Source of the DNA: Candidatus Levyibacteriota bacterium
GTDB lineage: Bacteria > Patescibacteriota > Microgenomatia > Levybacterales > UBA12049
DNA length: 64,000 bases
Reading direction: 5' to 3'
NCBI GenBank assembly: GCA_027459725.1
Contig: DAIDHK010000001.1
Location: forward strand, 67,411 to 131,410
Position 1 is the first letter of the stretch; every line of letters starts with the position of its first letter. Shown here piece after piece: positions 13,636-62,794 of this stretch. A program made the position numbers and the translations under genes. The notes beneath the pieces were generated by a model. It ran no database searches. It saw only the letters and a program-made list of their open reading frames with translations, and had not been told where the DNA came from.

Positions 13636-13642
13636 ATTTTTA

Positions 13643-14065
13643 TTATGCACTCTTTGCACTTGGCATCTTGGCACCATACTTACTTCTGGAAGTATGACGA
13701 CCCTCAACACCCTGTAAATCAAACTTACCGCGTACAATATGATACTTTACTCCTGGCAAATCCTTAACACGTCCACCACGAACTAAAACAATACCATGTT
13801 CGGACAAACTGTGACCAATACCCTGAATATATGCTGTAACTTCAACTTTGTTGGACAATTTAACACGAGCTACTTTACGCAGAGCTGAATTAGGCTTTTT
13901 AGGAGTCATAGTCTTAACCAAAGTAACCACTCCACGCTTTTGAGGAGAACTTAAATCTTTGTACTCACGGTCTTTAGCATTAAACATGCGGTGTAAACCG
14001 GTAGCTTTAACTTTTTTTGTCTTATGTTTTCGACCATGTCTGGCCAATTGCGATAATGTTGGCAT
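13643..14065 (-). CDS. rpsL: 30S ribosomal protein S12
   Basis: '[25 protein letters not shown]...[14 protein letters not shown]' canonical S12. Confidence 0.95.
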
Positions 14066-44961: not shown

Positions 44962-46323
44962 TTGATTAAACTAAGGAAAGTGAAATCTATTTTAATCCTG
45001 TTAATCGTGTTGATAGTAGCCGCAGCTGTTTCGTTAAGCGGAGGATTTAGTTCATTTTTACAAAGCGGCAATCAGGCCAGTCTTACCAGCGCAATTACCA
45101 TTACAGGAACTTCAACCGGATCAAACAGTTCGACAACTCTTAATGATACTTCCAAAAGCTTTACTCCAGGATCATTGGTAGGAGATACTATTACTATCAA
45201 TTCCGGTACCGGTGCTGGGCAGTCAGCAACTATTACTTCCAATACTAACAACCAAGTTACGATTGACAAACCCTGGACTACTACACCAGACACCTCTTCT
45301 AATTATACAATCACACCACCCGGAACAGGGGGATCAGCCAGCAGCGGCGGAATAGTTGTTGTTCCACCCCCCAATCAGAACGGCAAACAGTTACAGTTAA
45401 ATACCTTTGAGATGATTACTTTAACACCAACCTCAGCACCTACGCCAGCAACTGCTTGCGTATCTACAGATGGACCCAGAAACTCCAATTGTTCGTGTAC
45501 TACCCCGAGCGTCATCGCTGTTACCTGCAATGTTGGTAATACTAACCCTTCTGTTTTTAATGGGATTGGAGTTAATGAAACTTGCCCAGATGGAGGTGTT
45601 CCATGTGCGGATGTAAAACCAAAATATTATGCAGGTATAAGTTGCACTCCAACAAGCTGCGTATACCTTAAAAATACCTTAGTCATTCCTGGAGGTAGTA
45701 CGTTACCAGCAAGCCCAAGTTATTCAAAATATGAGAATTGTACAGGTGTGGCAAATGTTTGTTTTGATAAACCAGTCATTTACTTATATTCTGATCATGT
45801 CATAAATCATGTTTCTGTAAAACTAAATATTCCAGGAATTATTACTAAAAGTATTCCATCATACCCCGAAACTGGATGGAATAATATAACAGTTATACCT
45901 GGAGGTATAATAAATTATGATAATAAGATCTATAATGAATTATTCTATGAAACTAGCGTAAAAAAAACTCCTCAGTTAACCACAGGTTACGTATATTCTA
46001 CTAAAAATTTGCCAATCGAGTTAAATAATTTAACAACTAGACTAGGATTAAAACAATCAGAAAAGGAAGAATTTCTGAATTATTGGATGCCAAAGTTATA
46101 TGCATTAAATAAACCATATATATACGTTGGGATTCTTTTTGCAAAAGAAAAAGAACAAGTAGATAATGTTATTATCTCTCCAGAACCTGATACGACTATC
46201 TCTTTCTTGACCATATTTAAAGGATTAAGTACAGAAATCTTAGTCAAACAACCCACTCTTCCTAATATCCCCACAAGAAAAGGATTTGTCATGGTTGAAT
46301 GGGGAGGCGCAATAGAAAACTAA
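44962..46323 (+). CDS. secreted/membrane-anchored protein with Ser/Thr-rich region, Cys-rich central domain and conserved C-terminal domain
   Basis: Signal anchor 'ILILLIVLIVAAAVSL'; about 14 Cys between residues 165-260; no recognisable catalytic motif. Confidence 0.45.
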   Translation: MIKLRKVKSILILLIVLIVAAAVSLSGGFSSFLQSGNQASLTSAITITGTSTGSNSSTTLNDTSKSFTPGSLVGDTITINSGTGAGQSATITSNTNNQVTIDKPWTTTPDTSSNYTITPPGTGGSASSGGIVVVPPPNQNGKQLQLNTFEMITLTPTSAPTPATACVSTDGPRNSNCSCTTPSVIAVTCNVGNTNPSVFNGIGVNETCPDGGVPCADVKPKYYAGISCTPTSCVYLKNTLVIPGGSTLPASPSYSKYENCTGVANVCFDKPVIYLYSDHVINHVSVKLNIPGIITKSIPSYPETGWNNITVIPGGIINYDNKIYNELFYETSVKKTPQLTTGYVYSTKNLPIELNNLTTRLGLKQSEKEEFLNYWMPKLYALNKPYIYVGILFAKEKEQVDNVIISPEPDTTISFLTIFKGLSTEILVKQPTLPNIPTRKGFVMVEWGGAIEN

Positions 46324-46982
46324 ATTATTTTTAATGAAGATAAGATCTTATTTACTGTATTTTTATCATTTTGTCTAGTATTTTCAATAGAAAATGAGGT
46401 TTGAATAATAAATTGAATGTTATTACTTTCTAGGTAATAGACACTAGTTTGTAGCTTACCATAAGACTGACCATCAATAACTGGCCCGTTAATAATACTT
46501 GAAGAAAAGTCTGCTTGTTTACCACCAATATTTTTTTGCGTGTAGTCTATCTTAGTGTTTAGAGCAACTTCTTCTCTCTGTTTTAAACTTTCTGTGGAAT
46601 TCACGATTTCTATAATCTTGATAAAAGGTGAGATTGGGTCATAATTCCCATTTTGGACAGGAGACAGCTTTATAATTTTATATCCACTCAAAGATTCATC
46701 CTGAATAGTCCAATTTTGAGGATATTTTAGTGAATATATATCACCTGAGTATTGTTTCCAGTCATTAGTAGCACTAGAGGAAACAACTCCAGCTGAAATA
46801 GCCGGATTATTAGAAGTTACTGAATTATTGATTGTAGGATTGTTGGAGGGTGAGTTAGCGCTATTTTCAGATATACTTGAATTAGATTGCTTAGGAGAGG
46901 TCGAGTACCTTAATATGATAGAAAATAAAGCTACTAGAATTAATATAAATATACCTACAAAAACCAAAATTTTTTTATTCAT
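46320..46982 (-). CDS. membrane-anchored extracellular protein (last gene of the Clp/M4 operon)
   Basis: N-terminal TM 'ILVFVGIFILILVALFSIIL'; Ser/Asn-rich linker; C-terminal ~140 aa globular domain. Only 4 nt downstream of the TM-Clp gene. Confidence 0.45.
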   Translation of the reverse strand: MNKKILVFVGIFILILVALFSIILRYSTSPKQSNSSISENSANSPSNNPTINNSVTSNNPAISAGVVSSSATNDWKQYSGDIYSLKYPQNWTIQDESLSGYKIIKLSPVQNGNYDPISPFIKIIEIVNSTESLKQREEVALNTKIDYTQKNIGGKQADFSSSIINGPVIDGQSYGKLQTSVYYLESNNIQFIIQTSFSIENTRQNDKNTVNKILSSLKII

Positions 46983-46986
46983 AAAG

Positions 46987-49392
46987 TCACTTTGTTAAAA
47001 CAATCTGTCCACTGGCATCGACATTTAAAACGATCTTATCTCCCCTTTTAATCTGATCCTGAAGTTTTGCTTTTGCCAATAAGTCTTCTATATTATCCTG
47101 AATATACCTTCTCATCGGACGAGCTCCAAATTCAACGTCAGCACCTTCTTTAACAATTTTATCTATAACAACCTCGCTAAATGATAGACCAATATCCTGC
47201 TGTGCCATTTGACCAATAATGTCATTTAAAATTAACTGCACAATTTGCTTTAATTCCACAGGACCAAGTGGAGTAAAGGTAATAACATCATCAAAACGGT
47301 TTAGTAGTTCAGGACGGAAAATCTGATTTTGCTGCAGATATTCTAACAGCTTTTGCTGAAACACTTTATCTATTTTCTGTCCTGACACAACATTTTCACG
47401 AACAAATTCTGCTCCTGCATTTGAGGTGGCAATAATAATACTGTTCACAAAAGTAACCGTATGGCCTTTATTATCTGTCAAACGTCCATCTTCTAATACC
47501 TGCAAAAACAAATCAAGAATTTTAGGATGAGCTTTCTCAAATTCATCCAGCAAAACTAAAGAAAACGGATGATCATGAATTTTATCAGTCAGTTCGCCTC
47601 TTTCATTCCCCTCTCCGGGGGCTGAACCAAGTAGTCTTCTCTCTCCATCAATATCGGAGTACTCAGACATGTCCAGACGAATCATATTCTGTTCGCCGCC
47701 AAAATATACCGAAGCTAAGGCTTTAGCTGTTTCTGATTTGCCGACTCCAGTTGGCCCTAAGAAAAGGAAAGAAATGGGTCTATTCTGTGTAGTTAGGCCT
47801 GAGCGTAAACGCCTAAGTGCCTCAGCAATGGCCGAGATAGCCTGCGTCTGATCAATAACCTTTTCATGAATTTTATCTTCCAAATGCAATAATAATTCTT
47901 TTTCCTCTTTGGTAGGAGCACCTACATTAACCTGAGTTTTTAAACTGATTTGTGCCTCGATGTCACTGGCTAATACTACTTTTTGTCTTGACTTACCCAG
48001 ATAATGAGATTGTGAAGAAATTGCCACACTATTAGCCGCATCGTTGAGTAAGTTAACAGCACTACCTGGCAGCACCGCATCCTGCTCGTAACGGTCAGCC
48101 AGGTTAATAGCAGTCAGTACTGCATGATAAGTCATTATCACACCATTTTTATTTTCTATATCATCTGTTTTGGCAATTAGCATTTGCGTCGCAATATCTT
48201 TACTGGGTTCAAGAATATTGATTAAGGTAAACACTTCATGGAGTGGATTCTGCTGCATGTAAGTTTTGTAATTACCGGGTGACATACTGGCAATTACCGG
48301 CAGAAAGCCAGACTGTAAATAGGGCAACAGAGCGCCGGACAAATCTATAGCATAAGAACTTGCTCCCATCAAATTTTCAAAATCAGGAATATACAAAATT
48401 ACATTTCTGGCATGTGAGACTTCGGCTACGATCGATTCTAAACGAAGCTCTAAGTCACTACGGTCTTGCGCTCCGGCAATAAGCGGACCCACCATAAGCT
48501 GTAAAATCTTCTTATGATTAAGAAAGCCTGAAAGATGAGAGTAATAACTATCATTGGCCAACTCAGCCACCAGATTTTCTTTCCCTACACCATCTTCGCC
48601 CACCAGTAACACATTATTGTTTTCCCTTTTGCTCAGTGCTTCTAAAAGCGCTCTATATTGATCTTCTCTTCCTATTAAAAACGGTTCTATATCACGATAA
48701 CTAAAGTCCTGTGTATAATTTTTAGTCTCCGGGGTCCAACCATTTACAATCCCTTCGCCTATTCCTTCACCGGTAAAATTCATTCTAATTGGTCTGGGGA
48801 ACTCTTCGTTTTTAAATTTATAACGAGCCCATAATAATATTTGAAGTAGTTCCTCCTGTTTAATTTCATGATTGAAAAGTGTTTTGGTCTGATCTTCGCT
48901 CAAGAGCAAATAAGCAACCAGAGCGTCCATAGTAGTAATATAACTTCCGCCTATTTTCTCTACAATTTCTGCCGCTTTAGCAATAATTTGATCTGTGGGG
49001 ATATCTAGAACTTTAATATCCTCAACTGGTATCGCTGATTTTTCTAATACAAAAGACACGGTGGGAGTTTTTAATAATTTGTAAATAAATTTTTGCAATG
49101 TAATTGCAGAAAACAAAATTTGTAATAAATCTTTACTGCTAGACAGTGTCCATTTACCTTTATCATTTCTATTTACAGGTAGATAAGGATGAGATAAGTA
49201 GACATGAAAACGAAAAAATATTTCACAGATCAGAAACCATACAAAAACAAATAACGGCAAGCTAACTGGAAGTTTATGATTTAACTGGTTGAGAAAAAGT
49301 AAAATCACAAATACAAAGACTAATGTTCTGACAGACCGCAATAGCGCAGATGTATATATAATCTTTAATTTAACTAAACCTTCAATATTCAT
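46987..49392 (-). CDS. membrane-anchored Clp/Hsp100-family AAA+ ATPase with degenerate D1 and intact D2; no ClpP-docking loop
   Basis: Two N-terminal TM helices ('TLVFVFVILLFLNQL', 'LPLFVFVWFLICEIFF'), then a Clp_N-like repeat. D1 Walker A 'GEDGVGKEN' (canonical GEPGVGKT) and Walker B 'ILYIPDFEN' (canonical ILFIDELH) have lost catalytic residues. D2 is intact: 'FLGPTGVGKSETAKALA', '[29 protein letters not shown]', 'ATSN', 'GARPMRR'. No [ILV]G[FL] loop and no M-domain. Confidence 0.8.
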   Translation of the reverse strand: MNIEGLVKLKIIYTSALLRSVRTLVFVFVILLFLNQLNHKLPVSLPLFVFVWFLICEIFFRFHVYLSHPYLPVNRNDKGKWTLSSSKDLLQILFSAITLQKFIYKLLKTPTVSFVLEKSAIPVEDIKVLDIPTDQIIAKAAEIVEKIGGSYITTMDALVAYLLLSEDQTKTLFNHEIKQEELLQILLWARYKFKNEEFPRPIRMNFTGEGIGEGIVNGWTPETKNYTQDFSYRDIEPFLIGREDQYRALLEALSKRENNNVLLVGEDGVGKENLVAELANDSYYSHLSGFLNHKKILQLMVGPLIAGAQDRSDLELRLESIVAEVSHARNVILYIPDFENLMGASSYAIDLSGALLPYLQSGFLPVIASMSPGNYKTYMQQNPLHEVFTLINILEPSKDIATQMLIAKTDDIENKNGVIMTYHAVLTAINLADRYEQDAVLPGSAVNLLNDAANSVAISSQSHYLGKSRQKVVLASDIEAQISLKTQVNVGAPTKEEKELLLHLEDKIHEKVIDQTQAISAIAEALRRLRSGLTTQNRPISFLFLGPTGVGKSETAKALASVYFGGEQNMIRLDMSEYSDIDGERRLLGSAPGEGNERGELTDKIHDHPFSLVLLDEFEKAHPKILDLFLQVLEDGRLTDNKGHTVTFVNSIIIATSNAGAEFVRENVVSGQKIDKVFQQKLLEYLQQNQIFRPELLNRFDDVITFTPLGPVELKQIVQLILNDIIGQMAQQDIGLSFSEVVIDKIVKEGADVEFGARPMRRYIQDNIEDLLAKAKLQDQIKRGDKIVLNVDASGQIVLTK

Positions 49393-49721
49393 AGCTTAAT
49401 GAAAAATAAAAGAAATGAAAAAACTGGTAACAGGACAAAAACGCATATAAACATAAATTCAGCGCACAATAAAACCAACAACAGCAACAAGGAAATTAAA
49501 ATAAGAGCTGTCTTCACAAAAATCCCCATGCCGATAGAAAATCCTACCAGACCCTGCCTGTATTCATTTTTAATAGGTTGAAAAAAAGTTCTTAACAATA
49601 ACCCGACAGAAAACATACGTAAGAAGGAGGAATTAAGTGAAGAAAAATACGACAACAGTCCAAGCGGAGCATTTACATACCAGAATTTCAAAAACTCAAC
49701 CGGCAACAGTGAATATTGCAT
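49389..49721 (-). CDS. small polytopic membrane protein
   Basis: 110 aa, three predicted hydrophobic segments. Its stop overlaps the TM-Clp start (translational coupling). Fills the gap downstream of the M4 protease. Confidence 0.4.
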   Translation of the reverse strand: MQYSLLPVEFLKFWYVNAPLGLLSYFSSLNSSFLRMFSVGLLLRTFFQPIKNEYRQGLVGFSIGMGIFVKTALILISLLLLLVLLCAEFMFICVFVLLPVFSFLLFFIKL

Positions 49722-49781
49722 ACTAGTCTAGCATAGAAAGTTTAGTTCAAAAAAGCAAACCAGCTCAAGCCAAAGATACTT

Positions 49782-51863
49782 CTACTGACATGCAAAAGTA
49801 CACAACTGCAATCCCCCTGCTCCATGTGAACATTTACTGACGACCTTACATCCCGGCAAAGCCATGTTTGCCTGATTTAATAAACCAGACGGGACCTTCC
49901 ACTCAATCAAATAGTTGCCAGTTTGTGAGATAGTTGTTGAATAAGGTCCAATGGTTATGCCATCGGGTAATTGAGCTGTCAGCTGCAATTGTCCAAAACT
50001 AAAATCAGAAAAATCAACCGCTCCAGTGAGACTCGTAACACCTGTAAACTGCTGACCGCCAGAACTTAAAGTCAAGTTTACATTCGATATACCCTCATTA
50101 CCATCATAATATCCGTTGCCATTAAGATCGTTATAGACGATAACATGTAAAGATAAATCCGCTGAGGGAGTACCTGTAAGACTAACTGTACCATTTGGAC
50201 TCACAGTTGGAGATGGTGAGACTCCTTTTGTCGACAGAGGCTGACTGCTGCATGCAGGAGCAACTTCAGTTCTATTTAAACATACAGCTCCCTGCTGTGT
50301 ATTAACCGGTTGCTGATCCATCTCAGTAGCCTGTAAAGCTTTTTCAACATTAACACAAGTATTAGAGTACCCTCCATATAAATCATTACAGGCTAACAGC
50401 ATGTCAATATACATATCGGAAAAATTTGCTGAAGGAATTAAATAATGAGTTAGCGCCCGATATTGAATCTGATAACTGGCACTGCCTATACCATCAATCT
50501 GACAGCCGTTAAAACTTCCTCCCTCAGTCATCAAATAAAAAGCTTTATTCATCACACCCTCGTTGGAATGAACTCCTCCACTGTCTTGAGTATCACAGAT
50601 ATACAACGGAGAAAAAAGTTTATCCGGCTGACCAGTAAGTGTAGGATCATTCAGATATCTAAAAGGTGTTTTAACTCCCGCAATATGAACATCCGCTCCT
50701 ATTGACCAGTTATGATCAATGCCGGTAGCAAAAATATCTGAATTGCTTTCATTTAATGCTCCTGACTGATAGCTATAAATTAATCCTGCAGTGTAATGAG
50801 TTACCGCATGCGTTAATTCATGTGTGACGATGTCCAAAACATCCATACCGGCACATAATTCAATCCCACCGTCTACATAAGCTGAATTAGGACAGGGGAA
50901 TCCCGCAATATCAGCTCTGTTCACATAACCAAAAAGGGTTGCACCTTTATTATCTATACTGTCGCGGTTAAAATTGTTTAGATAAAACTGGTATACCTGC
51001 CCGAAAATATCATAAAGTTTATTGACGTCAGTGTTCATGGAGGGGGGCTGACCCTCTGTACGACTCACTACGCAATTATCAGAGTTGTTACAGTTGCTGA
51101 TGTTGCGGGCTAAAAGTGTTTCTACCTGATTTTCCTGGTAAACAATTTTTCCACTGGTTAAGTCAATAAAATAACGTGTAGCAAAATCCGGTGGTTTGTT
51201 CGATGTAGTTATTAAAACAGCTAAAACATGATAGGTAGTGCCATTATTGCTCAGGCCTAAAGCCTGCAGATTTAATAAGTACTCATTATCATTAGCAACC
51301 TTTAAATTTAAATGAGGATTATCCTTTCTTGCCTGGTTTAAGGCAATCATTTCAGCTTTCTCCCGGTTGATTTGGGTACTCAAAGTAGCAGGTTGCTTAG
51401 TAACCACTACCCCCGAAGCAGCATATATCTCGTCCACATGCTGAATGTGAACCGCGATAATCCCATCATAAACAGGTATATTATCTATGGTTTGCTGATA
51501 AAAATAATGTTCGGTGCCTGGTAGATAGTAGGTAGGACTTTGCTGGTCAACCAAGCTTCTCTGTAAAACAACCTTGGAATAACTATTTAAACCATTCCCA
51601 AAAATCCCGTTAGGATTTGCGCTAATAAAATCTAATGCTGCTGCCTCCCCCTGCTGATTTGATTTATATAAATAACCATTTTCAGTGTACAAGGAAAAAG
51701 CATTATCATTGCTATGTGTAACAGTATAAGAATCTTTGCCTAATATCTGAGGACTGATCCTAATCTGACTGACAAAATATGTTATTAAAGTAACTAATAT
51801 AAGTAATACGAAAGCTTCGACTAACCAGTATCTTCTCAAATACTTTAAAACCTTTTCTCTCAT
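49782..51863 (-). CDS. secreted M4 (thermolysin-like) zinc metalloprotease with N-terminal signal anchor/propeptide and C-terminal beta-rich extension
   Basis: '[33 protein letters not shown]' = HEXXH plus the downstream Glu ligand. '[17 protein letters not shown]' and '[16 protein letters not shown]' are collinear with thermolysin ('[34 protein letters not shown]...GGVHINSGIINKAAYLI'). Confidence 0.85.
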   Translation of the reverse strand: [693 protein letters not shown]

Positions 51864-51923
51864 ATTCTTATCATACAGGATTCTAGATTAGAGATAAAAT
51901 TAATGTCAAACCACCGTGATATT

Positions 51924-54900
51924 CTAGACAATACCGGAATTCGGGGAATCTTCATTGCTGATCAAGGCCGCTGCAGCTACAGCAGGAGGAGCAAATGTTG
52001 TACCCGTCACACCAGACGGCATCGAGACCGGAGAAATCGGCTGAGAGGGTAACTGATCAACAATAGCTGCAGGCGAGCCCGTTAGTAGTCCTGCATCGAC
52101 AGAATTCACGGGAGAACCAGAATTTAATCCTCCTACAGAAGGCATCTGAGAGGAGACTCCCGCAACAGCATTATTCATTGAGTTTGTATAACTTTGAGCG
52201 AGATCTCCCACTGTTTGCATTAAAGGCTGGGGATTATTCAAAGTGCCATCAGCAATACCAGGATCGGTCGCAATAACTGGCGACTGAGACAATGGCTGAC
52301 TACTCACGCTTAAACCTGAGGTAGGAATACTGGTACTCACAATGGGTTGAGATGCTATAGTTGAAGCTGATGCAGACAGAGTATCTGCTGATTGAAGTGT
52401 AGTAGGATTTGCAGACAACTTTGTATTTGTAGGCTGAAGTGCAGAGGGATTGTCCGTGGTATCTACAGCTTGAGGCTGGGGTAGTAATTTGATAAAGCTA
52501 AATTCAGATTTTTGCTGATCATAGTCAATTTTGATAATATCTCCTGCTATAAAAGTTTTGTTAATAATTTTCATGGCAATTGGATTTTCTATCGAGGATT
52601 GAATTAATCTGCGTAGCGGACGAGCACCGTACTGGGGATCATAACCTTCCTTAGCTAAAACTTCCAGAGCTCCATCAGTAATTTGTAAAGAAAACCCCTG
52701 TTCCTTGAGTAATTTATCAGTCTTATCAACTCCTAACTTGGCAATATACTTCATATCCTGCTGACGAAGCGGCTGAAACATAATTATTTCATCAAAACGA
52801 TTCAGCAATTCCGGACGGAAAAATTTATGCAAATCATCAGAAATTTTAGCTTGCATTTCCTTATACATTTTCTGATATTCCTCAGGAGTCTTAGTAGGTT
52901 TGGATAATTGATCCTGAATATCCTGACTGCCAATATTGGAAGTAGCGATAACAATAGTATTTTTAAATGAGATAGTATTACCTTTATTATCAGTCAAACG
53001 TCCGTCTTCTAATAACTGTAATAAAATATTAAACACATCCGGATGTGCTTTCTCTATTTCATCAAGCAGAACAATAGAATAAGGCTTGGCACGTACAGCC
53101 TCTGTTAATTGTCCTCCTTCTTCATAGCCCACATAACCGGGAGGCGCTCCAATTAATTTTGCCACCTCATGCTTTTCCATGTACTCTGACATATCCAAGC
53201 GCACCATTGCGTCATCCCGTCCAAATAGAATCTCCGCTAATGTTTTGGCTAACTCAGTCTTTCCTGTTCCTGTTGGACCAAGAAAAATAAAAGAAGCGAT
53301 CGGACGATTAGCCGCTGATAAACCAATCCTACCTCTACGCACTGCTTCTGCTACACCACTAACAGCCGGCTCCTGATCAATCAAACGCTGATGTATACGT
53401 TTTTCCAATTCCAGCAATTTCTGGCTTTCATCTTCAGTTAATTTGGTGATAGGAATACCGGTCCATGCGCTAACAACTTTTTCAATATCGGAACGCAACA
53501 CGCTATTATCTTTCCTTTTACCTGAGGACAACTGTAATTTAACTTCAGCCGCAGCTTCGTCTAACAGATCAACAGCTTTGTCAGGCAAATATCGCTCACC
53601 AATATACTTTTTAGAAAGTTTAACCGCCTGTTCTAACGCTTCATCCGGAATAGTGACATGATGATAATTCTCATACTTAGTTTTCAGAACCCTCAACATC
53701 TTTACAGCTGTTTGTTCATCCGGCTCTTCCGCCACAATTGGCTGGAAGCGGCGTGCAAATGCTTTATCTTTCTCAAAATATTTTCTGTATTCTGAAGTCG
53801 TTGTTGTTCCAATAATCTGCAATTGTCCGCGTGCTAAATTTGGCTTGATAATATTAGAGGCATCAAGCGACCCCTCATTATCACCTGTCCCAACCAGTGT
53901 ATGGATTTCGTCAAAAAACAAAATAATTTGTCCGCCGCTGGACATAGAGTCACGCATCACACTGCGAAGTCGCTCTTCAAATTCCCCCCTGTGGCTTGCT
54001 CCTGCAACTAGAGATGCAACATCTATCTGAATGATTTTTTTATTTTTTAATTCCTCAGGAACATTTCCTGTTACGATAGCTTGAGCTAAACCTTCTACAA
54101 TAGCTGTTTTCCCAACTCCTGCTTCACCGATAATAATAGGATTATTTTTGGTTCTGCGTAAAAGAATATGTACTAATCTGTCTACTTCTCTTTCCCTCCC
54201 TGCCACAGGATCCAATCCCCCCTCTTTTGCTTTTTCTGTCAGATCCACACCAAATTTATCCAGCACAGACTTCCTGCCTTCTATATAAGCTGAAGACTTT
54301 CCCAATTGAGCTACTACATCAGCTTTTTTTAAACCTTCTGCCTGTAACGTCGTCCCACTGGAAGAAGAAAAAACCGCCAATAAAATATCTTCCGGAGCAA
54401 TAAATGAGCTACTGCGCTCTTTAGCGGTGGTAAATGCACTTTCGAAGATTTGTTTGACTTGATCACTTAAAGTGGGCTGGCCTGCAAAAGTACCTACGAT
54501 TTCTTTAGCTTGTATTTCCCGGGATAGCTTCGCAACATCAACTTTAAATTGTTCTAGAAGCTTATAAATATCTGTGTCATATAACAGACCAAATAGCAAC
54601 TGTTCAGGCATTATAACTGCCTGCTGTATACGCATTGATTCCTGCTTAGCATGCATTAAAACCTGCATGGAACGGGAATCCAGATGAGATAGAGCTGATA
54701 AATCCTCACGACGTGAAGGGTCCATAACTGCATTGTTAGATGGAGTAGGAACAGATACCGGAATAGAAGATGGAGCTGTCGTTGTAGTAGTACTGGTCTG
54801 CTGAAAAGTAGGAACGGGTACAGCCACTGCTACCGGAGCTACTACCATTGGTCCGCTCGCACTAATTGTGGCTGTACTACTCTGAGTAGTCTGTGTAGTT

Positions 54901-54995
54901 TGTGTAACAGGAGAATTCACCTCCGATTGAGCAGAAGGATTAGAATCATTATTTTTTGCACTAAATAAATTTCCTAGCATATATCTATTGTTCAA
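51924..54995 (-). CDS. Clp/Hsp100-family AAA+ ATPase, ClpA-like architecture (Clp_N-D1-D2), without M-domain or ClpP-docking loop, with ~230-aa disordered Ser/Pro/Thr/Gln-rich C-terminal tail
   Basis: D1 '[18 protein letters not shown]' and '[12 protein letters not shown]'. D2 '[17 protein letters not shown]', '[29 protein letters not shown]', 'GARPLRR'. The D1-D2 linker is short. The sequence after sensor-1 ('[19 protein letters not shown]...') has no IGF/VGF tripeptide. Confidence 0.85.
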
Positions 54996-55024
54996 TTTTT
55001 CTTTGCATTAGTCAAGCTGACTAA

Positions 55025-57925
55025 TTATTCTGATTTATTTTTGAACTCTTCAACAGTTTTATCCTTTTTTTCATCAGCATATTCATTCACCGATACGTCC
55101 AAATGCCCCTCCAGTTTGTCCTGCTGAACTGAGGTTGTTCTTTGACTAAGAAGTGTATCCTCTTCCTCTTCCTGTTTGCCCAAGTTGGCCAGTACTTCTT
55201 TAGCAGCTTGTGCTTTAGCTTTTAAGTAAGCCACAATTTCAGATTGTGAGAAACCTCCAATCAGCAAAAACGGCAGAATTCCAGACACACGCTGCATGCC
55301 CTGACTTACTTGTAATTGATCCTGAGAGGAAAGTAAAGAAATTGTCTCTGCAATATCCTCAATATCTGAAATCAGCCATGACTTACGATCACTGATCCTT
55401 CCATCCAGCGTTTCTGGAACATCCATGTTAGTATAGTTATCAGCCCACATCTGTCTGACAGCTTCATAATCCTCAATGCTGACGGTCTGAATGCGGTTAG
55501 AAGAAGGCAGATTTGCTCCCGCATTGGAGATCTGAACACCATTTTGCGCTAAAAGTTCTAACACCTTTACGGCTAAGGGATCTCCCTTTTGTTTGGCATC
55601 CTGCAAAGTCTTTAATAAACGTTGAACTTGAGAAATAATATCGGGAGATTGTGCAGATGCCAATAATTCAGTAGCCAATTTATTACCCTTTCGACTTTCC
55701 TGTTTGAGTTGATCATGTAATTTGGTAACTGTTGGCAGATCAACTTTACCTTTTTGAGAAAATAGTTTAGTAGCAGCTAATACATTTACTGCGACAGGAT
55801 TACTACTAGCACTTTCCTGATGCAATGTCTGTACAATTGTATTAAGGGTTGAGGGCAGAGTAGACGTAGACTGAGTAGCAATTTTTTGAATCATTTGGGA
55901 AATACTTTCGATTTCCGTTTTATTAATAGTATTCATAGTTGAGACGACCAGCGAAGCGGTAGTATTACCTTTTTCACTTTGCTCAACTATGGTCTGACGT
56001 ATCTCATTAGCTTTAGTTCTCTCCATCTGACTAGCCGCAATTGTAGGATTTAAGATTGTATTCATGGTTTGTTGAACCGTATTTGCTGTCTGTTTGCTGA
56101 CACTGGTAGCCGTAGCCAGAGACGCCGCCTGTAAAATGTTCTTTGCTAAAACATTTCCCTTCTGACTCTCAACCATTAATCTTCCTCTTATCTGGCGGTA
56201 TGTATCCTGTTGAGCACCAATCGCACTGGTCGGGTTAGCAATTTTCGACAACGTTTGTTCATAACGTAGCGAGGTAGGAGAGGATTTATTAACTATCATA
56301 TTTTTCTCAAATTGCGCTATGTCACGCATAGTGGGAACATTAAGATTAGTCAGGCGCATAAGCTCAGAATTTATTTTTACAGGTATTTGAACCGGTTGAT
56401 TCCTTTTAATATCCACGTTTACTGGTACTTTAAAATTAGCCCCAAAAGGCAACGACTTAGCCAGACCTGTGGGTTTATACTTACTTGGAGGTTGAGGGGA
56501 AATCGGTGAAGGAGGGGGGGGATTAAACATAGCAGGACTTCTGGCTATCAGCTGCTGTACCCATGCGTTCTCATTAATTGAAAATGAATTAAGATAATCA
56601 AGAAAAATCTGCAAAAGAATAAACGGTAATAAGATAACTACCCATAACATCATTAATGCCACAATATATTCTGCAAAAGTTTCGACATAATTTATGCTAT
56701 TGTTAATACCGACCTGTTGTTTGGGTCCACCAAGCAAAATATTAATAGCTGTAGGAAACCTATCCAACAACTCCGGTGAGCCGGGTTTAAAGGTTGAAGG
56801 ATCCTGTCCGCCTAATACAGCGGAAGAATTATACGTATCTCCTGCCAAATCTGTATGTGTATAGTCTGTGAAGTTAAGAGGAATATAATTTACCCATACG
56901 CTTACCAAGCCGGCAAGTAATATTGAAAACAATGGTGCATACAATAACCAGCGGAAGAATTCACCTATCCAAATTTTGGCCGTATTACGAACCGGACTAA
57001 AAAATAGAAGTAAGGGGAAAACGGGAGAGAGGATAATAAAAAACCACATGATAATTTTACGCAGCAACAAAATACCAACCATAACGTAATACGTGATGGC
57101 TGTCAGCTTGACGAGTAACAGAGCAATAAAAGCAGATTCCGTAGCGGAAGGATCTGCCAAGCGCAAACCAACAAATGTGGCGTAATCCCATCCTACAAAC
57201 AAGAGATCTTTTTGTGAAATATTATTGGGAGCATATGTAGGACTTTTAAGAAAGAATAACTGGATGATATCTCCTAACTGGTAGAGAAATTGAATTATAC
57301 TCCAGGAAAAATATACTAAAATCACAATTACTATAAAGCGGATAATAAAACGCCTAACGCTTAAACTTCTACCCCGCGTTGCTATAATGACAATAGCGGC
57401 AACAATCAATACTACTGCCAGCATTGCATATACAATATAACTAATTTTTAACCAGAAAAGCTGTAAAGGATTTTGAGAGGGAGATCCTCCACTTCCCGGC
57501 ATAAGATATACCCAACCAAAATTTTTTGCGCTTAAAGTCCAGTCAAGCAAAAGTCCCGCGCGGGCAGCATTTTGCCCGACAAAAGTTACTTCACTATCAG
57601 GCACATAAGTTCCAGTCGGCACTGGAGTGGTACCCACACCAATTGCACCTGCTCCTCCACCAGGAGTAGGAGAAGGCGTTGGCGTGGCAGTAGGGGTGGG
57701 AGAAGGAGTTGGTGTAGGTGTATTTATGGGAGCAGAACAACCACATGATGGACCAGATAATCTACTACTAGGTGCTACACAAAAACAAGTTTGTCCAACA
57801 GGGCATGTACCATTGGTACTACCCCCACAAGTATAAGTTGCTGCATCTACAAGATAAGCAGAGTTAAAAAATAAACCAAAATAAACTAACAATGCAATGA
57901 AGATGCTGGGCAGTTTTTTCAACAT
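55025..57925 (-). CDS. large polytopic membrane protein: signal peptide, Cys-rich and Pro/Thr-rich ectodomain, ~7 TM helices, ~480-aa C-terminal domain with degenerate 'KGNxLAxxxLxxA' repeats (VirB6/TrbL-like topology?)
   Basis: Signal 'MLKKLPSIFIALLVYFGLFFNSAYLVDA'. Eight Cys in 'TYTCGGSTNGTCPVGQTCFCVAPSSRLSGPSCGCS'. (TP)n linker. Multiple hydrophobic helices between residues ~150-470. Repeats 'ESQKGNVLAKNILQAA', 'EQSEKGNTTASLVV', 'ESRKGNKLATELLASA', 'AKQKGDPLAVKVLELLA'. Confidence 0.6.
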   Translation of the reverse strand: MLKKLPSIFIALLVYFGLFFNSAYLVDAATYTCGGSTNGTCPVGQTCFCVAPSSRLSGPSCGCSAPINTPTPTPSPTPTATPTPSPTPGGGAGAIGVGTTPVPTGTYVPDSEVTFVGQNAARAGLLLDWTLSAKNFGWVYLMPGSGGSPSQNPLQLFWLKISYIVYAMLAVVLIVAAIVIIATRGRSLSVRRFIIRFIVIVILVYFSWSIIQFLYQLGDIIQLFFLKSPTYAPNNISQKDLLFVGWDYATFVGLRLADPSATESAFIALLLVKLTAITYYVMVGILLLRKIIMWFFIILSPVFPLLLFFSPVRNTAKIWIGEFFRWLLYAPLFSILLAGLVSVWVNYIPLNFTDYTHTDLAGDTYNSSAVLGGQDPSTFKPGSPELLDRFPTAINILLGGPKQQVGINNSINYVETFAEYIVALMMLWVVILLPFILLQIFLDYLNSFSINENAWVQQLIARSPAMFNPPPPSPISPQPPSKYKPTGLAKSLPFGANFKVPVNVDIKRNQPVQIPVKINSELMRLTNLNVPTMRDIAQFEKNMIVNKSSPTSLRYEQTLSKIANPTSAIGAQQDTYRQIRGRLMVESQKGNVLAKNILQAASLATATSVSKQTANTVQQTMNTILNPTIAASQMERTKANEIRQTIVEQSEKGNTTASLVVSTMNTINKTEIESISQMIQKIATQSTSTLPSTLNTIVQTLHQESASSNPVAVNVLAATKLFSQKGKVDLPTVTKLHDQLKQESRKGNKLATELLASAQSPDIISQVQRLLKTLQDAKQKGDPLAVKVLELLAQNGVQISNAGANLPSSNRIQTVSIEDYEAVRQMWADNYTNMDVPETLDGRISDRKSWLISDIEDIAETISLLSSQDQLQVSQGMQRVSGILPFLLIGGFSQSEIVAYLKAKAQAAKEVLANLGKQEEEEDTLLSQRTTSVQQDKLEGHLDVSVNEYADEKKDKTVEEFKNKSE

Positions 57926-57926
57926 A

Positions 57927-58343
57927 CTAATTTATTTTCTGATATTCATAATCTGCATTCTTCACGTATTGATTTGTTTTATACAACTGTATCCATTTTT
58001 CTTCCTGACCTGCCGGAACTGTAACCTCAAAGACAATATCAGTTCCTTTTTGATTATAAGAACCATTAGAACTGTACTGTACTAAACGGGCTGGCTCAGC
58101 GTTTTCCAGAAACAAACTTACAGCCTCATCATAATTAGTACTATCTACTGTAACCAATATTTTTCCTGCAACATAAGGAGATAATCCAAAGATTCTATAG
58201 AGACCTGTTTGATATATAAATGAGGGATTATTAAACACATACAGATATAGAATAAACATAAATAGAGTAAGAAATACTCCCAACAAAAAACCTGTAGCAA
58301 AAGAATATTTTCGCTTTGACGGTTGTGATATTTTTATCGGCAT
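57927..58343 (-). CDS. bitopic membrane protein (N-terminal TM + ~100-aa extracytoplasmic domain)
   Basis: TM 'FATGFLLGVFLTLFMFILYLYVF'; 1 nt from the neighbouring genes on both sides. Confidence 0.45.
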   Translation of the reverse strand: MPIKISQPSKRKYSFATGFLLGVFLTLFMFILYLYVFNNPSFIYQTGLYRIFGLSPYVAGKILVTVDSTNYDEAVSLFLENAEPARLVQYSSNGSYNQKGTDIVFEVTVPAGQEEKWIQLYKTNQYVKNADYEYQKIN

Positions 58344-58346
58344 ATA

Positions 58347-58655
58347 TTAAGCTCCAAATCCGGGTAATTTTAAGATGTCAACTAAAACTATCTGAATAAA
58401 CAGATAACCAAAAATAGCTAATAACAATCCGGCAATAGCATAATATAAATAACTTTTACCATTACGTAAGGCAGCAGGATCCCCCTGTGACGTAAGAAGA
58501 ATATATGCTCCATAGAGAATAAATATTAAAGAAAGTCCTCCGATAATACTTAAGCCAATACCATAAAACCTTTCAGCAAAGGCTACAGGATCAGTAGGTA
58601 AGCAACCAAAATCAGTTGTGATTCCGCTTCCTCCATTTGGTAAAGTACACTGCAT
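58347..58655 (-). CDS. small 2-TM hairpin membrane protein (VirB2/TrbC-pilin-like topology), first gene of the operon
   Basis: 102 aa. Two hydrophobic helices ('IGLSIIGGLSLIFILYGAYILL', 'LYYAIAGLLLAIFGYLFIQIVLV') separated by the polar loop 'TSQGDPAALRNGKS'. No N-terminal signal peptide. The resemblance is architectural only. Confidence 0.45.
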   Translation of the reverse strand: MQCTLPNGGSGITTDFGCLPTDPVAFAERFYGIGLSIIGGLSLIFILYGAYILLTSQGDPAALRNGKSYLYYAIAGLLLAIFGYLFIQIVLVDILKLPGFGA

Positions 58656-58736
58656 ACTATTACGTTAGCAGAGATAGCTCATAAAAACAATATTTATGAT
58701 GCCTAAAATTATTAAATTAATTTAATAATTTATAAC

Positions 58737-58776
58737 AAAAAAACACCCTCAGCTGGATAGACTGAGAGTGTTTTTT
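58737..58776. terminator. bidirectional terminator-like hairpin in the divergent leader region (possible attenuator of the minus-strand operon)
   Basis: 'aaaaaaa-CACCCTCAG-ctggataga-CTGAGAGTG-tttttt': 9-bp stem with one mismatch, A-run 5' and T-run 3'. About 90 nt upstream of the operon's first start codon (58655, minus strand). Confidence 0.4.
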
Positions 58777-59213
58777 ACCATGAAAATAGTATTATTAACA
58801 AATTTTTATTCTCATTAGAAATCAGCTTGGTCTGACTTTCTCAACATAATCAGGATCTATTCAGCAGTTAAATAGCTGTACAGTCTTTGTGATTTTATGT
58901 GAAATAATTTTCGTCCTAAATGTAATAGATCTCGTGTAGCCTTCTTGGTTGTTGTTGTAAAATCTATCAGATCTCCAACTAAATTAATTTCACCAATGTT
59001 GAGATTAATGAAAATACTTGTTGTCAAACAGGATATGTTATTTACAATTCACAACAAGTTCAATAATCCGTTATATTTTATTTCTTTTTCCCTGCACCTC
59101 CTTATAAATACAATATTAACAATAAATCCTGAAAAATCCCTTAACATTCATTAATCAAAATACCACAGCTTGTATTGTCCTAGAGTAATTGATATAATTT
59201 CTACTCTTTAAAT

Positions 59214-60797
59214 ATGCCGGTTGAACAATTGTCAAAACGTATCCTAACAAGTATTATGAATTTCACTGAAGGTACCGGTGGGGAAGGGCGCTTGCCAGTT
59301 CTCGAAATTGTACCTGAGGGTAATTTTGCCAGAACAGATAATGGAAATAATATCTTCCGTGAGGGTGCTAACTTATTTGGAATATTTACTAATAAATTTG
59401 CCCGCTCAACTCTTACTTTAAATCCAGCTCCGCATGTTCCAGGTAAGATACCAGCCGAAGTTGTAAGAAATGCTGCCCTCAGAAGATTTGGTTTTATACC
59501 TAATCTGGGAAATCTAAACGAAATTGGAACTCATTTAGTAGTCTGGTGGCAAAAACTTGATACACCGCCTGAAACTCCTATAGAAGAACAAACAGGTTCT
59601 CGTTGTGATATGCTCGGCCTTGCGCAACTGCCTGAAACAGATCGCAAGAATTATTTTTCAGCTATTAGTCAACAAATTGAAAATGGTGTTAATTTAATGG
59701 CTGAATGTTTAGGTTTATCTGAGGACGGACTTAGAAATTTAAGAGTTTATGGTTTATTTGGACATGCCACTTGGGAAGAGCGTAATAAATTTGGCCTAAG
59801 TAGAGGCTCACAAAGCGCACCTGACGGACATTTAAATATTGTCTACTTACCTGAAGATGTTAGTAAAAAGACGAATCCGGAAGCAGTTACGGCTAAAGAA
59901 ATGGTTAAACAGATTGGTCCATGGGATACAGTGGTTGATAACCTATTTGGCAGTGGAATACAAAGAATGATTCAGAATACTGCACTATCACGACTGAATC
60001 CGCGGGATGTAAAGGAAAATAATCCGATTTATGTCACCAGATTGTCAGATTATACCACCAGCAGTGACTTCTCTCATATGAATTTCTTTGAAGGCTATAA
60101 GTTGAATTTTGGCCAATCCATAAGCATAGAACGATCACTTGCAGTACTTACTGACATCCTTAAAAAAGGCTCAGACCTCTATTCAGCTGCTTTGTCCAAC
60201 TATGAGGCTTACTTTAAAAACAGTCATAATCCTGACAGGAAAAAAGCCATATTTGATAATTTAAAAACAAGTGCTAAATTATTTGGTTTTGGTGATCGTA
60301 TGGCAGGTGAATTTGCTAATTTCGTTTTCTCCATAAAACCGACCCATGGTCAGCTAAATAAATGGATTAATGAAATTGAAGCTGATATACACAGCCACAA
60401 TGCCGGTACTGATAACTCTGAAATATCTGCCGACAATTTAGCTTATTTAAAAAAAGTCAAACGCGTATATCAAAGAATCGCTGTAAAATTACACGCGACA
60501 GGCGGACGGGAAAGCTTGAGAAAACATCTTCAGCATGTTAACAATTTATCCCCTCTGGATGCTGATCTACTTCTATCAGTGATTGAAGACAGATTCAAAC
60601 TAATGGATGAAAAAGTGACAAACATTTCCTCTATTATGTCCCCCTTCCTCTCAGGCAGCTATATGCTTGATTACACAAGGGATAATCAGGGACATATTAT
60701 GGTTAAGGGCATATCCTTGAGCACACGTCTTGGCACTGACAAAGGAGTAGTAGAAGATTTAGGAGGATATGTTATTCATCGAGCCACGGGTATATAA
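59214..60797 (+). CDS. hypothetical cytoplasmic protein (527 aa), no recognised domain
   Basis: Long uninterrupted ORF with no TM or signal peptide and a mixed alpha/beta character. No motif I can assign from memory. Preceded by a 560-bp AT-rich intergenic region. Confidence 0.5.
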   Translation: MPVEQLSKRILTSIMNFTEGTGGEGRLPVLEIVPEGNFARTDNGNNIFREGANLFGIFTNKFARSTLTLNPAPHVPGKIPAEVVRNAALRRFGFIPNLGNLNEIGTHLVVWWQKLDTPPETPIEEQTGSRCDMLGLAQLPETDRKNYFSAISQQIENGVNLMAECLGLSEDGLRNLRVYGLFGHATWEERNKFGLSRGSQSAPDGHLNIVYLPEDVSKKTNPEAVTAKEMVKQIGPWDTVVDNLFGSGIQRMIQNTALSRLNPRDVKENNPIYVTRLSDYTTSSDFSHMNFFEGYKLNFGQSISIERSLAVLTDILKKGSDLYSAALSNYEAYFKNSHNPDRKKAIFDNLKTSAKLFGFGDRMAGEFANFVFSIKPTHGQLNKWINEIEADIHSHNAGTDNSEISADNLAYLKKVKRVYQRIAVKLHATGGRESLRKHLQHVNNLSPLDADLLLSVIEDRFKLMDEKVTNISSIMSPFLSGSYMLDYTRDNQGHIMVKGISLSTRLGTDKGVVEDLGGYVIHRATGI

Positions 60798-60851
60798 TAC
60801 TTTTAACAGAATTATTATATTCTTTTCATATTCATCCATTAGTATAAAATA

Positions 60852-61772
60852 ATGAGATACTTAATAACGGCGGTATTATTGGGTTTAATATTTATTCTCC
60901 TTTTAATTAATTTACTACATATAAGTCCAAATAATGTTCAAACAGATATAACTTCCTCCAATTACGCTACTGTTTCAACTCCACCAGCATCAGTACCTGA
61001 TTTCAACCATATTGTCATTATTATCATGGAAAATAAGCCTTTAAGTTCTCTGCAAAACAATCCGTCAGCCAGCTATATCAATCAACTTGCTAAACAGTAC
61101 GCGTACGCGGCTAACTACACTGCCGTCACGAATCCCAGCCTGCCTAACTATATAGCATTGATAGGAGGAAGTACATTTGGTATTAATTCTGACTGCACTA
61201 ATTGTTTTTTAAATCAGCCAAATCTAATTGATCGCTTACAAACTGCTGATATAAGCTGGAAGGCATATATGGAATCAATGCCTTCGGCCTGTTATCTAGG
61301 CAGTACTAACTTATACGCTCAGAAACATGACCCATTTATCTACTTTGATGACATAAGAAATAATTCTGCCCGATGTAAAAATATTGTTCCATATTCTAAT
61401 CTAACAAAAGATCTTGCCTCGGCTTCTCCTCCACGGTTTATCTGGATCACACCCAATCTGTGTAATGACATGCATAATTGCTCTATTCAAACCGGAGATA
61501 CCTGGTTATCACATAATGTTCCACTTATTCTAAAATCAAAAATTTTTACTACAAAAAATTCTTTGCTAGTGATTACCTGGGATGAGGGTAACATTTATGA
61601 TAATAAAATTGCCACCATTTTTGCCGGCCCTCAGGTTAAACATAACTTTGTCTCGTATAAAGCTTATTCGCATTATTCCTTATTGCACACTGTGGAATCT
61701 TCCTGGCATTTGCACCCACTGACTAGTAATGATTCTACAAGTCCGGTAATGGCTGATTTTTTTAACCAATAA
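60852..61772 (+). CDS. secreted phosphoesterase-family protein (PlcN/AcpA-like, PF04185-type)
   Basis: Signal anchor 'AVLLGLIFILLLINLL'; 'HIVIIIMENKPL...NPSLPNYIALIGGSTFGI' matches the phosphoesterase-family N-terminal metal-binding region; 'ITWDEGN' is a later conserved block. Confidence 0.65.
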   Translation: MRYLITAVLLGLIFILLLINLLHISPNNVQTDITSSNYATVSTPPASVPDFNHIVIIIMENKPLSSLQNNPSASYINQLAKQYAYAANYTAVTNPSLPNYIALIGGSTFGINSDCTNCFLNQPNLIDRLQTADISWKAYMESMPSACYLGSTNLYAQKHDPFIYFDDIRNNSARCKNIVPYSNLTKDLASASPPRFIWITPNLCNDMHNCSIQTGDTWLSHNVPLILKSKIFTTKNSLLVITWDEGNIYDNKIATIFAGPQVKHNFVSYKAYSHYSLLHTVESSWHLHPLTSNDSTSPVMADFFNQ

Positions 61773-62683: not shown

Positions 62684-62794
62684 AATATAATAAAAAATCC
62701 TAATTCTAAACCCTAAATCCTAAATAAATCCAAATATTTCAATTGAATTTAAACTTTGCAATTATTTAGAAATTAGATATTAGAAATTAGGATT

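Follow-up and report, generated by a model that had tools for sequence, protein, structure and literature searches.

The eight co-directional genes at 46320-58655 in a 64,000-nucleotide stretch of a Candidatus Levyibacteriota genome (contig DAIDHK010000001.1, positions 67,411 to 131,410; this whole stretch is hereafter the window) bring together two atypical Clp/Hsp100 ATPases, proteins of the kind seen in a type IV secretion system (T4SS) and an exported metalloprotease. Comparison with relatives resolves them into two sets of conserved neighbours. One comprises a pilin, a VirB6-like membrane platform and a soluble Hsp100 (module 1). The other comprises a small membrane protein, p110, and a membrane-anchored Hsp100 paralogue, here called TM-Clp for its transmembrane (TM) helices (module 2), and is part of the dnaK-dnaJ operon, not of module 1. 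We give an even chance to the reading that the region, with the functions proposed below, is a mosaic in which these two modules and a variable slot are set in a dnaK-dnaJ ... nusA-infB backbone of Levybacteria-type Patescibacteria. All eight open reading frames (ORFs) of the tight minus-strand cluster named in the original prediction were confirmed, with successive spacings of 3, 1, 29, 60, 60, -4 and 4 nt:

58347..58655, minus strand: VirB2-like T4SS pilin, 102 aa, first gene of the cassette
57927..58343, minus strand: p138, a single-pass membrane protein, inserted between the pilin and VirB6-like genes
55025..57925, minus strand: VirB6-like polytopic membrane protein (B6, the platform), 966 aa
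51924..54995, minus strand: soluble two-ring Hsp100, 1023 aa, TTG start
49782..51863, minus strand: exported M4 metalloprotease, 693 aa, in the variable protease slot
49389..49721, minus strand: p110, a small polytopic membrane protein, 110 aa, partner gene of TM-Clp
46987..49392, minus strand: membrane-anchored Hsp100 paralogue (TM-Clp), 801 aa
46320..46982, minus strand: p220, an N-terminally anchored exported protein, last gene

Gene order was compared across 79 loci, almost all from Levyibacteriota and at ~40% identity, which were collected by a VirB6-like-seeded scan with one genome per species and whose ORFs were labelled by phmmer against the window proteins. The pilin and B6 genes are adjacent in 69/72 loci, B6 and the Hsp100 gene lie within 2 kb of each other in 66/68 (within 100 nt in 56), and p110 directly precedes TM-Clp in 51/51 with a median gap of 1 nt, such that the conservation on which the original prediction hinged extends well beyond close relatives. 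The median distance from Hsp100 to p110 is 1.9 kb. In most loci dnaK-dnaJ stands directly upstream of the pilin gene, and in ~14 the order is dnaK-pilin-B6-Hsp100-(X)-dnaJ-p110-TMClp; since the cassette is there intact between dnaK and dnaJ, it changes its place with respect to dnaJ as one block.

Pilin, VirB6-like platform and soluble Hsp100

The evidence which most directly connects the platform with the ATPase is a helical repeat of ~80 aa (...IANP-x10-R...L..KL..ES..GN.LA..IL.V...S...I..L...AK..GD.LA..IL.), for which Pfam holds no matching family. The tail of every VirB6-like protein consists of 3-14 copies of this ANP...GNxLA unit (in the window protein three, at aa 559-612, 622-687 and 732-794), and the long C-terminal extensions of Hsp100s, in which the repeat is present in one third of the species, consist of 4-5. 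A jackhmmer search started from one Hsp100-tail unit, in a space of more than 5,700 locus ORFs together with the window ORFs, matched exclusively the VirB6-like locus proteins (all 83), the window's own copy and 23 Hsp100 orthologues. Real Hsp100 tails matched in 21/21 cases at 29-68 bits, and their reversed or shuffled versions in 0/21 even at E<=100; between an Hsp100 tail and a VirB6-like tail the repeat is 41% identical over 56 aa by composition-corrected BLAST. Nothing else argues as strongly for joint action of the VirB6-like protein and the Hsp100 as this common repeat.

The 966-aa platform protein itself has a signal peptide, eight Cys within ~aa 30-65, a Pro/Thr linker and six more hydrophobic segments, its TM core carrying an invariant WIGEFFRW motif and its C-terminal half being formed by the helical repeats and a conserved globular domain at aa ~807-907. 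Because Pfam TrbL/VirB6 is matched by 7/28 members of its family, we treat this polytopic protein, which has the VirB6 fold, as a divergent VirB6 homologue; the family profile, when compared with PDB sequences, found designed helical bundles only, at non-significant E-values. The large polytopic protein with a Cys-rich ectodomain and a repeat-containing C-terminal domain was thus correctly recognised in the original prediction.

The 102-aa product of the first gene is a two-TM hairpin (TM segments at aa 37-55 and 74-92) in which two Cys toward the N-terminus (C3, C18) and a PGF motif at the C-terminal end are conserved. Its own match to PF18895 (T4SS_pilin) is weak and below the gathering score (E 4e-4); the family is matched by 45/46 of the pilin orthologues (best 2.5e-8), and PF04956 (TrbC) by two. 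Small size, hairpin topology and family profile together identify a T4SS pilin, in agreement with the pilin-like topology proposed earlier. p110, p138 and p220 match no Pfam family; the pilin and the VirB6-like protein, on the other hand, belong to known T4SS-type families, a point which counts against the earlier interpretation.

Larger exported proteins (150-470 aa) are encoded divergently upstream of dnaK in 13 related loci (for example L013:4068-5330(-), L023:4059-5312(-), L024:1974-3392(-), L027:2890-4182(-), L038:1-1245(-), L044:3805-5166(-) and L073:2501-3697(-)). Twelve of these 13 have a T4SS_pilin-like two-TM domain at or near the C-terminus, most with a Cys-rich N-terminal region, and in them the pilin domain appears to anchor variable surface domains in a membrane or a polymer.

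The 1023-aa protein belongs to the class-I Hsp100s. Its N-extension is of low complexity and is followed by a Clp_N domain, two AAA+ modules whose sites are both intact and a D2-small domain (Pfam, NCBIfam); its C-tail, likewise of low complexity, is rich in S/P/A/T. Its second ring, D2, is active and has a canonical GYVG pore loop; in the pore loop of the first, D1 (AGASHRG), the window sequence and its 67 orthologues have His in 64/68 cases and never Tyr, a feature absent from the original prediction. The hydrophobic-Gly-hydrophobic tripeptide by which such ATPases dock on ClpP, sought in that part of the last AAA+ module which runs from sensor 1 to the arginine finger, occurs in 0/68 sequences of this family, and none is visible in the window's 801-aa TM-Clp, as the earlier reading of both ATPases had it. 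The protein aligns to the ClpA model in a single stretch and to the ClpB model in two, skipping model positions ~410-526, and we conclude from the unbroken ClpA and the split ClpB alignment that it has no M-domain, which bears out its earlier description as ClpA-like; no more than ~14 residues lie between a 14-residue segment of the protein and the D1-D2 linker. Its scores against the ClpA, ClpC and ClpB models are highly significant yet under every equivalog cut-off, and against the ClpV1 model TIGR03345 it reaches 699.5 bits in two stretches, the cut-off being 884.95.

The genes around it were covered by a Pfam scan of 38 window ORFs, namely all un-nested ORFs of at least 180 aa (except 13162-13737, 191 aa), the small cluster genes and S15. 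No ClpP, VirB4, VirD4 or T6SS (type VI secretion system) family was found among them, as predicted; the sole match of VirB4/CagE/AAA_10 type was FtsK (alpha and gamma domains). VirB4, VirB3/PrgI, TrsD and VirD4 were found neither in the 64-kb window nor in the precomputed Pfam lists of four relatives (L001, L003-L005), so that a complete T4SS, with a VirB4-family ATPase encoded alongside the membrane components, is not recognised within the window. A normal ClpAP or ClpCP unit was rejected on the docking loop (0/68) and the lack of ClpP in the window, a normal ClpB unit on the absent coiled-coil M-domain of the D1 small subdomain and the scores below the equivalog cut-offs, and a T6SS fragment on the lack of T6SS families in the window and the ClpV score below its cut-off.

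TM-Clp and its partner p110

The second ATPase is a new membrane-anchored Hsp100 subfamily, and a narrow one. It has an amphipathic helix, a pair of TM helices in the N-terminal part (aa 16-38 and aa 44-64) and a helical N-domain at aa ~81-197 (predicted local distance difference test score of the model, 83.7). Its D1 is degenerate family-wide, with Walker A reduced to GK-E in 116/120 homologues, the Walker B Asp replaced by Pro in 117/120 and the arginine fingers changed from RR to E[AV]; the model and these motif states uphold the proposal of two N-terminal TM helices and a catalytically dead D1. The D1 loop reads AGAxNRxDLE. D2 retains Walker A and B, sensor 1, the arginine finger and sensor 2, together with D2-small, and its pore loop, PPG[EQ]G[DNE]ERGELT in the 120 homologues (PGEGNERGELT in the window copy), is two residues shorter than GYVGYEEGG and non-aromatic. 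This loss of GYVG from an active ring, which is absent from the original prediction, is found also in 15 distant sequences of type B, two of them with a Phe in the shortened loop, so that GYVG is lacking in all 135 sequences. Processive Hsp100 unfoldases have an aromatic-hydrophobic-Gly pore loop, GYVG in D2 and KYRG in D1, in a competent ring, and TM-Clp has none; given that the aromatic pore-loop residues are missing from both rings, its earlier assignment as an unfoldase or translocation motor is unsafe, and TM-Clp is probably not a processive unfoldase.

An exhaustive HMMER search with the N-terminal 235 aa of TM-Clp matched 72 cluster representatives among 1.84 billion proteins, in every case N-terminally, and all 27 of the matched proteins with at least 700 aa have lengths of 778-832 aa; this search and a metagenome scan replaced an alignment against a word-indexed database which had returned five fragments only. 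The metagenome scan with the same domain gave 80 contigs, of which 45 have a resolved upstream context. In 24/45, all of type B, the order is dnaK-dnaJ-p110-TMClp-nusA-infB with no cassette between and with dnaJ-to-p110 gaps of 16-103 nt, some as small as 16-56 nt, and in the other 21/45 the soluble Hsp100 lies upstream of p110-TMClp, with B6 and the pilin where the contig reaches. From the 24 contigs without a cassette it follows that p110 and TM-Clp are a separate module of the dnaK-dnaJ operon and not an obligatory part of the cassette, and on these grounds, as well as on the restriction of p138 and p220 to the nearest relatives, the earlier view of a single eight-gene unit had to be given up.

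In the window the p110 stop overlaps the TM-Clp start by 4 nt, and the two genes are adjacent also in the tabulated metagenome loci (contigs of at least 7 kb). p110 has an invariant F-x-P-x-KNEYR motif, and Pfam contains no family that matches any of 46 orthologues. Its candidacy as a VirB3 homologue was dropped, since none of these 46 matches Pfam VirB3 and the partner ATPase is of the Clp class, not VirB4; the likeness of p110 and TM-Clp to a VirB3-VirB4 pair is positional only.

Protease slot, accessory genes and flanks

The 693-aa protein of the window comprises a signal anchor, an FTP propeptide (7.5e-7), PF01447 (2.7e-8), PF02868 (3.7e-34) and a C-terminal SdrD_B beta-sandwich (Pfam), with HELTH at aa 348 and GALNESNSD at ~aa 366-374. 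M4 and M4_C domains, the HEXXH motif and the downstream Glu ligand in NESNSD (general form NExxSD) make it a signal-anchored metalloprotease of the thermolysin family M4, as had been proposed. Across the relatives the position after Hsp100 is occupied by a signal-anchored exported protein in ~37/66 loci, while the protease is missing from ~29/66, the contents being as follows:

M4 protease: 8 loci and the window
S8 subtilase, mostly with a fervidolysin-like prodomain: ~21 loci
~600-aa exported protein, no assigned type: 8 loci

Most slot proteins have in common a C-terminal SdrD_B/CarboxypepD_reg or Cohesin beta-sandwich. The ~600-aa proteins have no PDB sequence match and, in Pfam, C-terminal Cohesin (in L017, L019 and L040) or SdrD_B domains only. 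Single-linkage BLAST clustering merged all three groups through SdrD_B, and they were separated by HEXXH checks and Pfam. The protease was at one point regarded as non-conserved cargo, phmmer labelling having found it in 8 loci only; this was abandoned since S8 and other exported proteins fill the same slot. Non-homologous proteases at one position suggest selection for a protease there rather than for M4 as such. Of the original picture of an Hsp100 beside an extracytoplasmic thermolysin it therefore remains that an exported protease recurs after the Hsp100, while the M4 enzyme itself is exchanged for a non-homologous S8. Loci without a slot gene tend toward long Hsp100s of 1167-1513 aa, whose long C-terminal extensions are the ones built from the repeat. 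One locus alone (L032:9914-16669) has two S8 subtilase genes immediately after the VirB6-like gene, and neither an Hsp100 nor an upstream pilin was detected there; it may represent a cassette copy that is paralogous or has decayed.

The remaining features of the region and its borders are:

51880..51909, minus strand: TTGACA-18-TAGAAT (11/12), the region's best match to a sigma-70-like promoter, a consensus match only, within the gap of 60 nt before the M4 gene
44962..46323, plus strand: p453, a signal-anchored Cys-rich exported protein, convergent with the cluster
59214-61772, plus strand: two genes separating dnaJ from the pilin gene
61796-62683, minus strand: dnaJ (Pfam)
62795-63937, minus strand: 3' part of dnaK (Pfam)

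The promoter match would fit a protease that is separately acquired and separately expressed as a slot gene. Between the pilin gene and the divergent gene for a 527-aa protein lies a 560-nt non-coding stretch (58656-59213), in which a strong terminator-like hairpin followed by a T-run, again a consensus match only, is found on the minus strand at ~58738-58775, ~80 nt upstream of the pilin start; it could be the terminator of an unannotated small transcript, or a leader or attenuator. Rfam has no RNA family at the gathering threshold in the 64 kb, including this 560-nt leader, and ARAGORN found no tRNA genes there. No CIRCE/HrcA operator was detected in the window at up to 3 mismatches, and we accordingly make no claim of heat-shock regulation.

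Among the accessory genes, p138 has one TM segment (aa 19-37) and homologues in L006 and L007 only, and p220, which is Ser/Asn-rich, has a TM segment at aa 5-23 and a homologue in L006 only; neither matches a Pfam or NCBIfam family. p453, for which Pfam likewise has no family, is more widespread, with homologues in L015, L017, L019, L028, L036, L041, L054, L068, L070, L088 and L096; they sit between the B6 and Hsp100 genes in L017, L019, L036, L041 and L068, and before the pilin in L015 and L054, and p453 may be a recurrent accessory surface component. Best database hits and the related loci place the organism with the Patescibacteria of Levybacteria (Levyibacteriota, Microgenomatia) type, the nearest relative being L006 (identity 88% in the 801-aa protein, 83% in the 966-aa protein). 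The two plus-strand genes at 59214-61772 encode the 527-aa protein, which has no family, and a 306-aa phosphoesterase (PF04185); their insertion, seen in the window and L006 only, disrupts the co-orientation of dnaJ and pilin that is typical of relatives.

The flanks are otherwise housekeeping in character, with dnaK and dnaJ (61796-63937) on one side, nusA, infB, rpsO, pnp, a Lon-like AAA+ gene and those for RNase J and ftsK on the other, and GroES/EL, rpoB and rpoC farther off in the window. The Lon-like gene (36905-38167, minus strand) encodes 420 aa with an AAA domain and a Lon lid and without the Lon protease domain; a homologue follows pnp at the equivalent position in L001, L004 and L005, and the product seems to be a Lon-like ATPase devoid of protease which the clade has conserved. 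At 23556-25994 (plus strand) the gene for an 812-aa protein whose Baseplate_J-like match is weak (E 2.8e-5) precedes an overlapping sortase gene (25987-26739, plus strand), an odd pairing with no further phage-like genes seen nearby, and at 8282-9160 (plus strand) a 292-aa protein with a Cohesin domain adjoins groES/groEL. GC skew is negative in 29/32 2-kb windows, consistent with most genes being on the minus strand. Many of the metagenome-assembled genome records with a Levybacteria-type locus (L007-L084) are titled 'uncultured Gammaproteobacteria', and others Limnocylindrales, Sulfotelmatobacter or Lysobacterales; judged by gene content and synteny, the titles look mislabelled in bulk or the contigs mis-binned.

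Interpretation and known systems

The T4SS of Patescibacteria has been described as centred on VirB4 and akin to monoderm conjugation machinery, with TrsD, PrgI/VirB3, VirB6 and VirB2-like pilins, often near dnaA; VirB6 homologues are reported to be scarce in Microgenomatia, and many VirB2 and VirB6 genes to lie away from virB4 (PMC12102498). In Southlakia, the only lineage in which this has been examined, the T4SS genes are essential and so are the pilins (PMC10633639). Neither of these two papers mentions Clp/Hsp100, and in the literature searched we found no paper joining 'Candidate Phyla Radiation' with 'Hsp100' and no description of the present gene combination. The undescribed membrane-associated unfoldase or export system of the original prediction therefore survives in part, as a conserved and apparently undescribed coupling of T4SS-type genes with an Hsp100, and not as one machine, nor with TM-Clp as a likely unfoldase.

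According to the mosaic reading, the Hsp100 hexamer of module 1 would dock on the repeat tail, probably cytoplasmic, of the VirB6-like platform, and threading driven by D2 would remodel the assembly of pilin and platform, either extracting and recycling pilin or resetting the platform, much as ClpV acts on the T6SS sheath or as VirB4 is proposed to act on VirB2; less likely, unfolded cargo would be fed to the platform, as by HSP101 in the PTEX complex. The slot protease would act on the same cell surface, and module 2 could be an ATP-driven, membrane-proximal switch or holdase formed with p110 and possibly with DnaK/DnaJ.

Several observations weigh against this reading. The functionally unrelated nusA-infB are conserved neighbours too, so that synteny in the clade is partly conservation of the backbone, and a dnaK-dnaJ-clpB operon is a natural arrangement (Thermus thermophilus), whence the Hsp100 could be a general chaperone into whose operon the pilin and VirB6 genes were inserted. 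The window's own Hsp100 does not have the common repeat, its tail being low-complexity. That the VirB6-like tail is cytoplasmic we infer from VirB6 topology, the positive-inside pattern and the sharing of the repeat with a cytoplasmic protein, and we infer likewise every functional step of the modules and the slot. Lastly, it is probable that some other part of the genome encodes a VirB4 able to energise this pilin and its VirB6-like partner; as the VirB4-based T4SS of Patescibacteria is often encoded near dnaA (PMC12102498), its absence from the window is no proof of a VirB4-independent system.

The main rival accordingly makes the Hsp100s general proteostasis factors of a dnaK-dnaJ-clp heat-shock operon and takes the pilin and VirB6-like protein for the divergent 'missing' parts of a VirB4-based T4SS encoded elsewhere, with no more than an operon in common with the chaperones, a view which we think unlikely, while granting it a real chance. 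It draws on dnaK-dnaJ immediately upstream, on nusA-infB as an equally conserved neighbour and on the scarcity of recognisable VirB6 in Microgenomatia, the position of virB4 near dnaA and the many VirB2/VirB6 homologues encoded away from virB4 (PMC12102498). A repeat exclusive to the VirB6-like and Hsp100 tails is hard to explain without a functional link, however, and the Hsp100 has neither the M-domain needed for DnaK-coupled disaggregation nor the Tyr of the D1 pore loop; moreover, the cassette shifts in one piece with respect to dnaJ, and the window has no CIRCE element. The chaperone operon context would also suit an envelope quality control, in which both Hsp100s and DnaK/DnaJ survey and extract misassembled pilin, platform and exported zymogens at the membrane as a ClpP-independent counterpart of FtsH-type control, outside secretion; membrane and exported proteins are frequent among the products of the neighbouring genes, and TM-Clp is membrane-anchored with, in the model, its D1 face toward the membrane. 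This we consider rather improbable: a protease domain or ClpP loop for the disposal of extracted proteins is missing, as are the TM-Clp pore-loop residues which extraction needs, and the common repeat suggests stable docking over transient substrate recognition.

Two further proposals stand beside the mosaic. There is, in our estimate, a slender chance that the region encodes a T4SS-derived machine run by a docked Hsp100 and not by VirB4, possibly with p110 and TM-Clp in place of VirB3 and VirB4, which would act as a PTEX-like translocon or a ClpV-like pilus recycler of ultra-small Patescibacteria at the host interface. The idea with which the original prediction began, that all eight genes are one envelope-embedded apparatus for unfoldase-driven secretion, surface proteolysis or import with both Hsp100s as motors, seems very unlikely to us. 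It has in its favour the tight spacing and common direction of the genes, the occurrence of both modules, often with a protease, in one string in 21/45 TM-Clp contigs and most Levybacteria loci, and the lack of ClpP and VirB4 in the window. It is hard to square with p110 and TM-Clp standing directly after dnaK-dnaJ without the cassette in 24/45 contigs, with dnaJ lying between the two modules in ~14 loci, with p138 and p220 being limited to the nearest relatives and the protease missing from ~29/66 loci, or with a TM-Clp that lacks aromatic pore loops.

Patescibacteria account for a large part of the diversity of bacteria, and they cannot do without contact to other cells. If true, the coupling of VirB2/VirB6-type proteins with a ClpP-independent Hsp100 would be a new kind of energising or remodelling partner for type IV secretion. 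TM-Clp, set in the dnaK-dnaJ operon with p110 as its obligatory small membrane partner, is a bacterial Clp-class ATPase that is probably non-threading and reminiscent of eukaryotic Torsins. The VirB6-like family may, in addition, be the divergent VirB6 homologue that surveys have found to be scarce in Microgenomatia (PMC12102498).

Of the known systems, the T4SS is approached in the window by a two-TM PF18895 pilin followed by a polytopic VirB6-fold protein in a chromosomal, relaxase-free setting in Patescibacteria, a phylum for which pilin genes adjoining T4SS genes have been reported (PMC12102498, PMC10633639). It differs in that the VirB6-like protein has a Cys-rich ectodomain and a long tail of novel repeats, the next gene encodes an Hsp100 and not a T4SS ATPase, and the locus lies at dnaK-dnaJ and not near dnaA. 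With ClpV (TssH) the soluble Hsp100 has in common two rings, an N-domain, independence of ClpP and a gene position by those for the structural proteins of an envelope machine. ClpV, which remodels rather than degrades, also has no Tyr in the D1 pore loop and a canonical D2 loop, as in the 1023-aa protein; however, the window has no T6SS genes, and the partner of its Hsp100 is a VirB6-like membrane protein and not a sheath. From ClpA, ClpC and ClpB, whose domain order (Clp_N, D1, D2, D2-small) it repeats, the 1023-aa protein departs by lacking the ClpP-docking loop of ClpA and ClpC and the M-domain of ClpB and ClpC, and its family by the His for Tyr in D1 and the long low-complexity or repeat extensions at both ends.

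A coupling of Hsp100 and membrane protein through the C-terminal region of the ATPase is known from the PTEX translocon of Plasmodium (HSP101/ClpB2, PTEX150 and EXP2), in which HSP101 docks via its C-terminal domain on the EXP2 membrane pore (PMC7355975), and finds a likeness here in the C-terminal repeat common to both proteins. PTEX, however, is eukaryotic and extracytoplasmic, its HSP101 has an M-domain, and EXP2 and PTEX150 are not homologous to the VirB6-like protein; export through the latter would be an analogy only. TM-Clp, for its part, resembles FtsH in that its N-terminal TM helices would, in the model, put the ATPase ring under the membrane, and differs from it in having no protease domain, two Clp-class AAA+ modules and no aromatic pore-loop residue. 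Another likeness is to the Torsins, membrane-associated relatives of Clp which need cofactors and have no aromatic pore loops (PMC5425593). TM-Clp combines Clp relationship, N-terminal hydrophobic membrane association and the absence of aromatic pore loops with a dedicated membrane cofactor, as the Torsins do with LAP1/LULL1; Torsins, though, are single AAA+ modules without an arginine finger of their own, whereas TM-Clp has a complete D2 site beside a degenerate D1, and p110 is a small membrane protein and not an AAA+-like activator.

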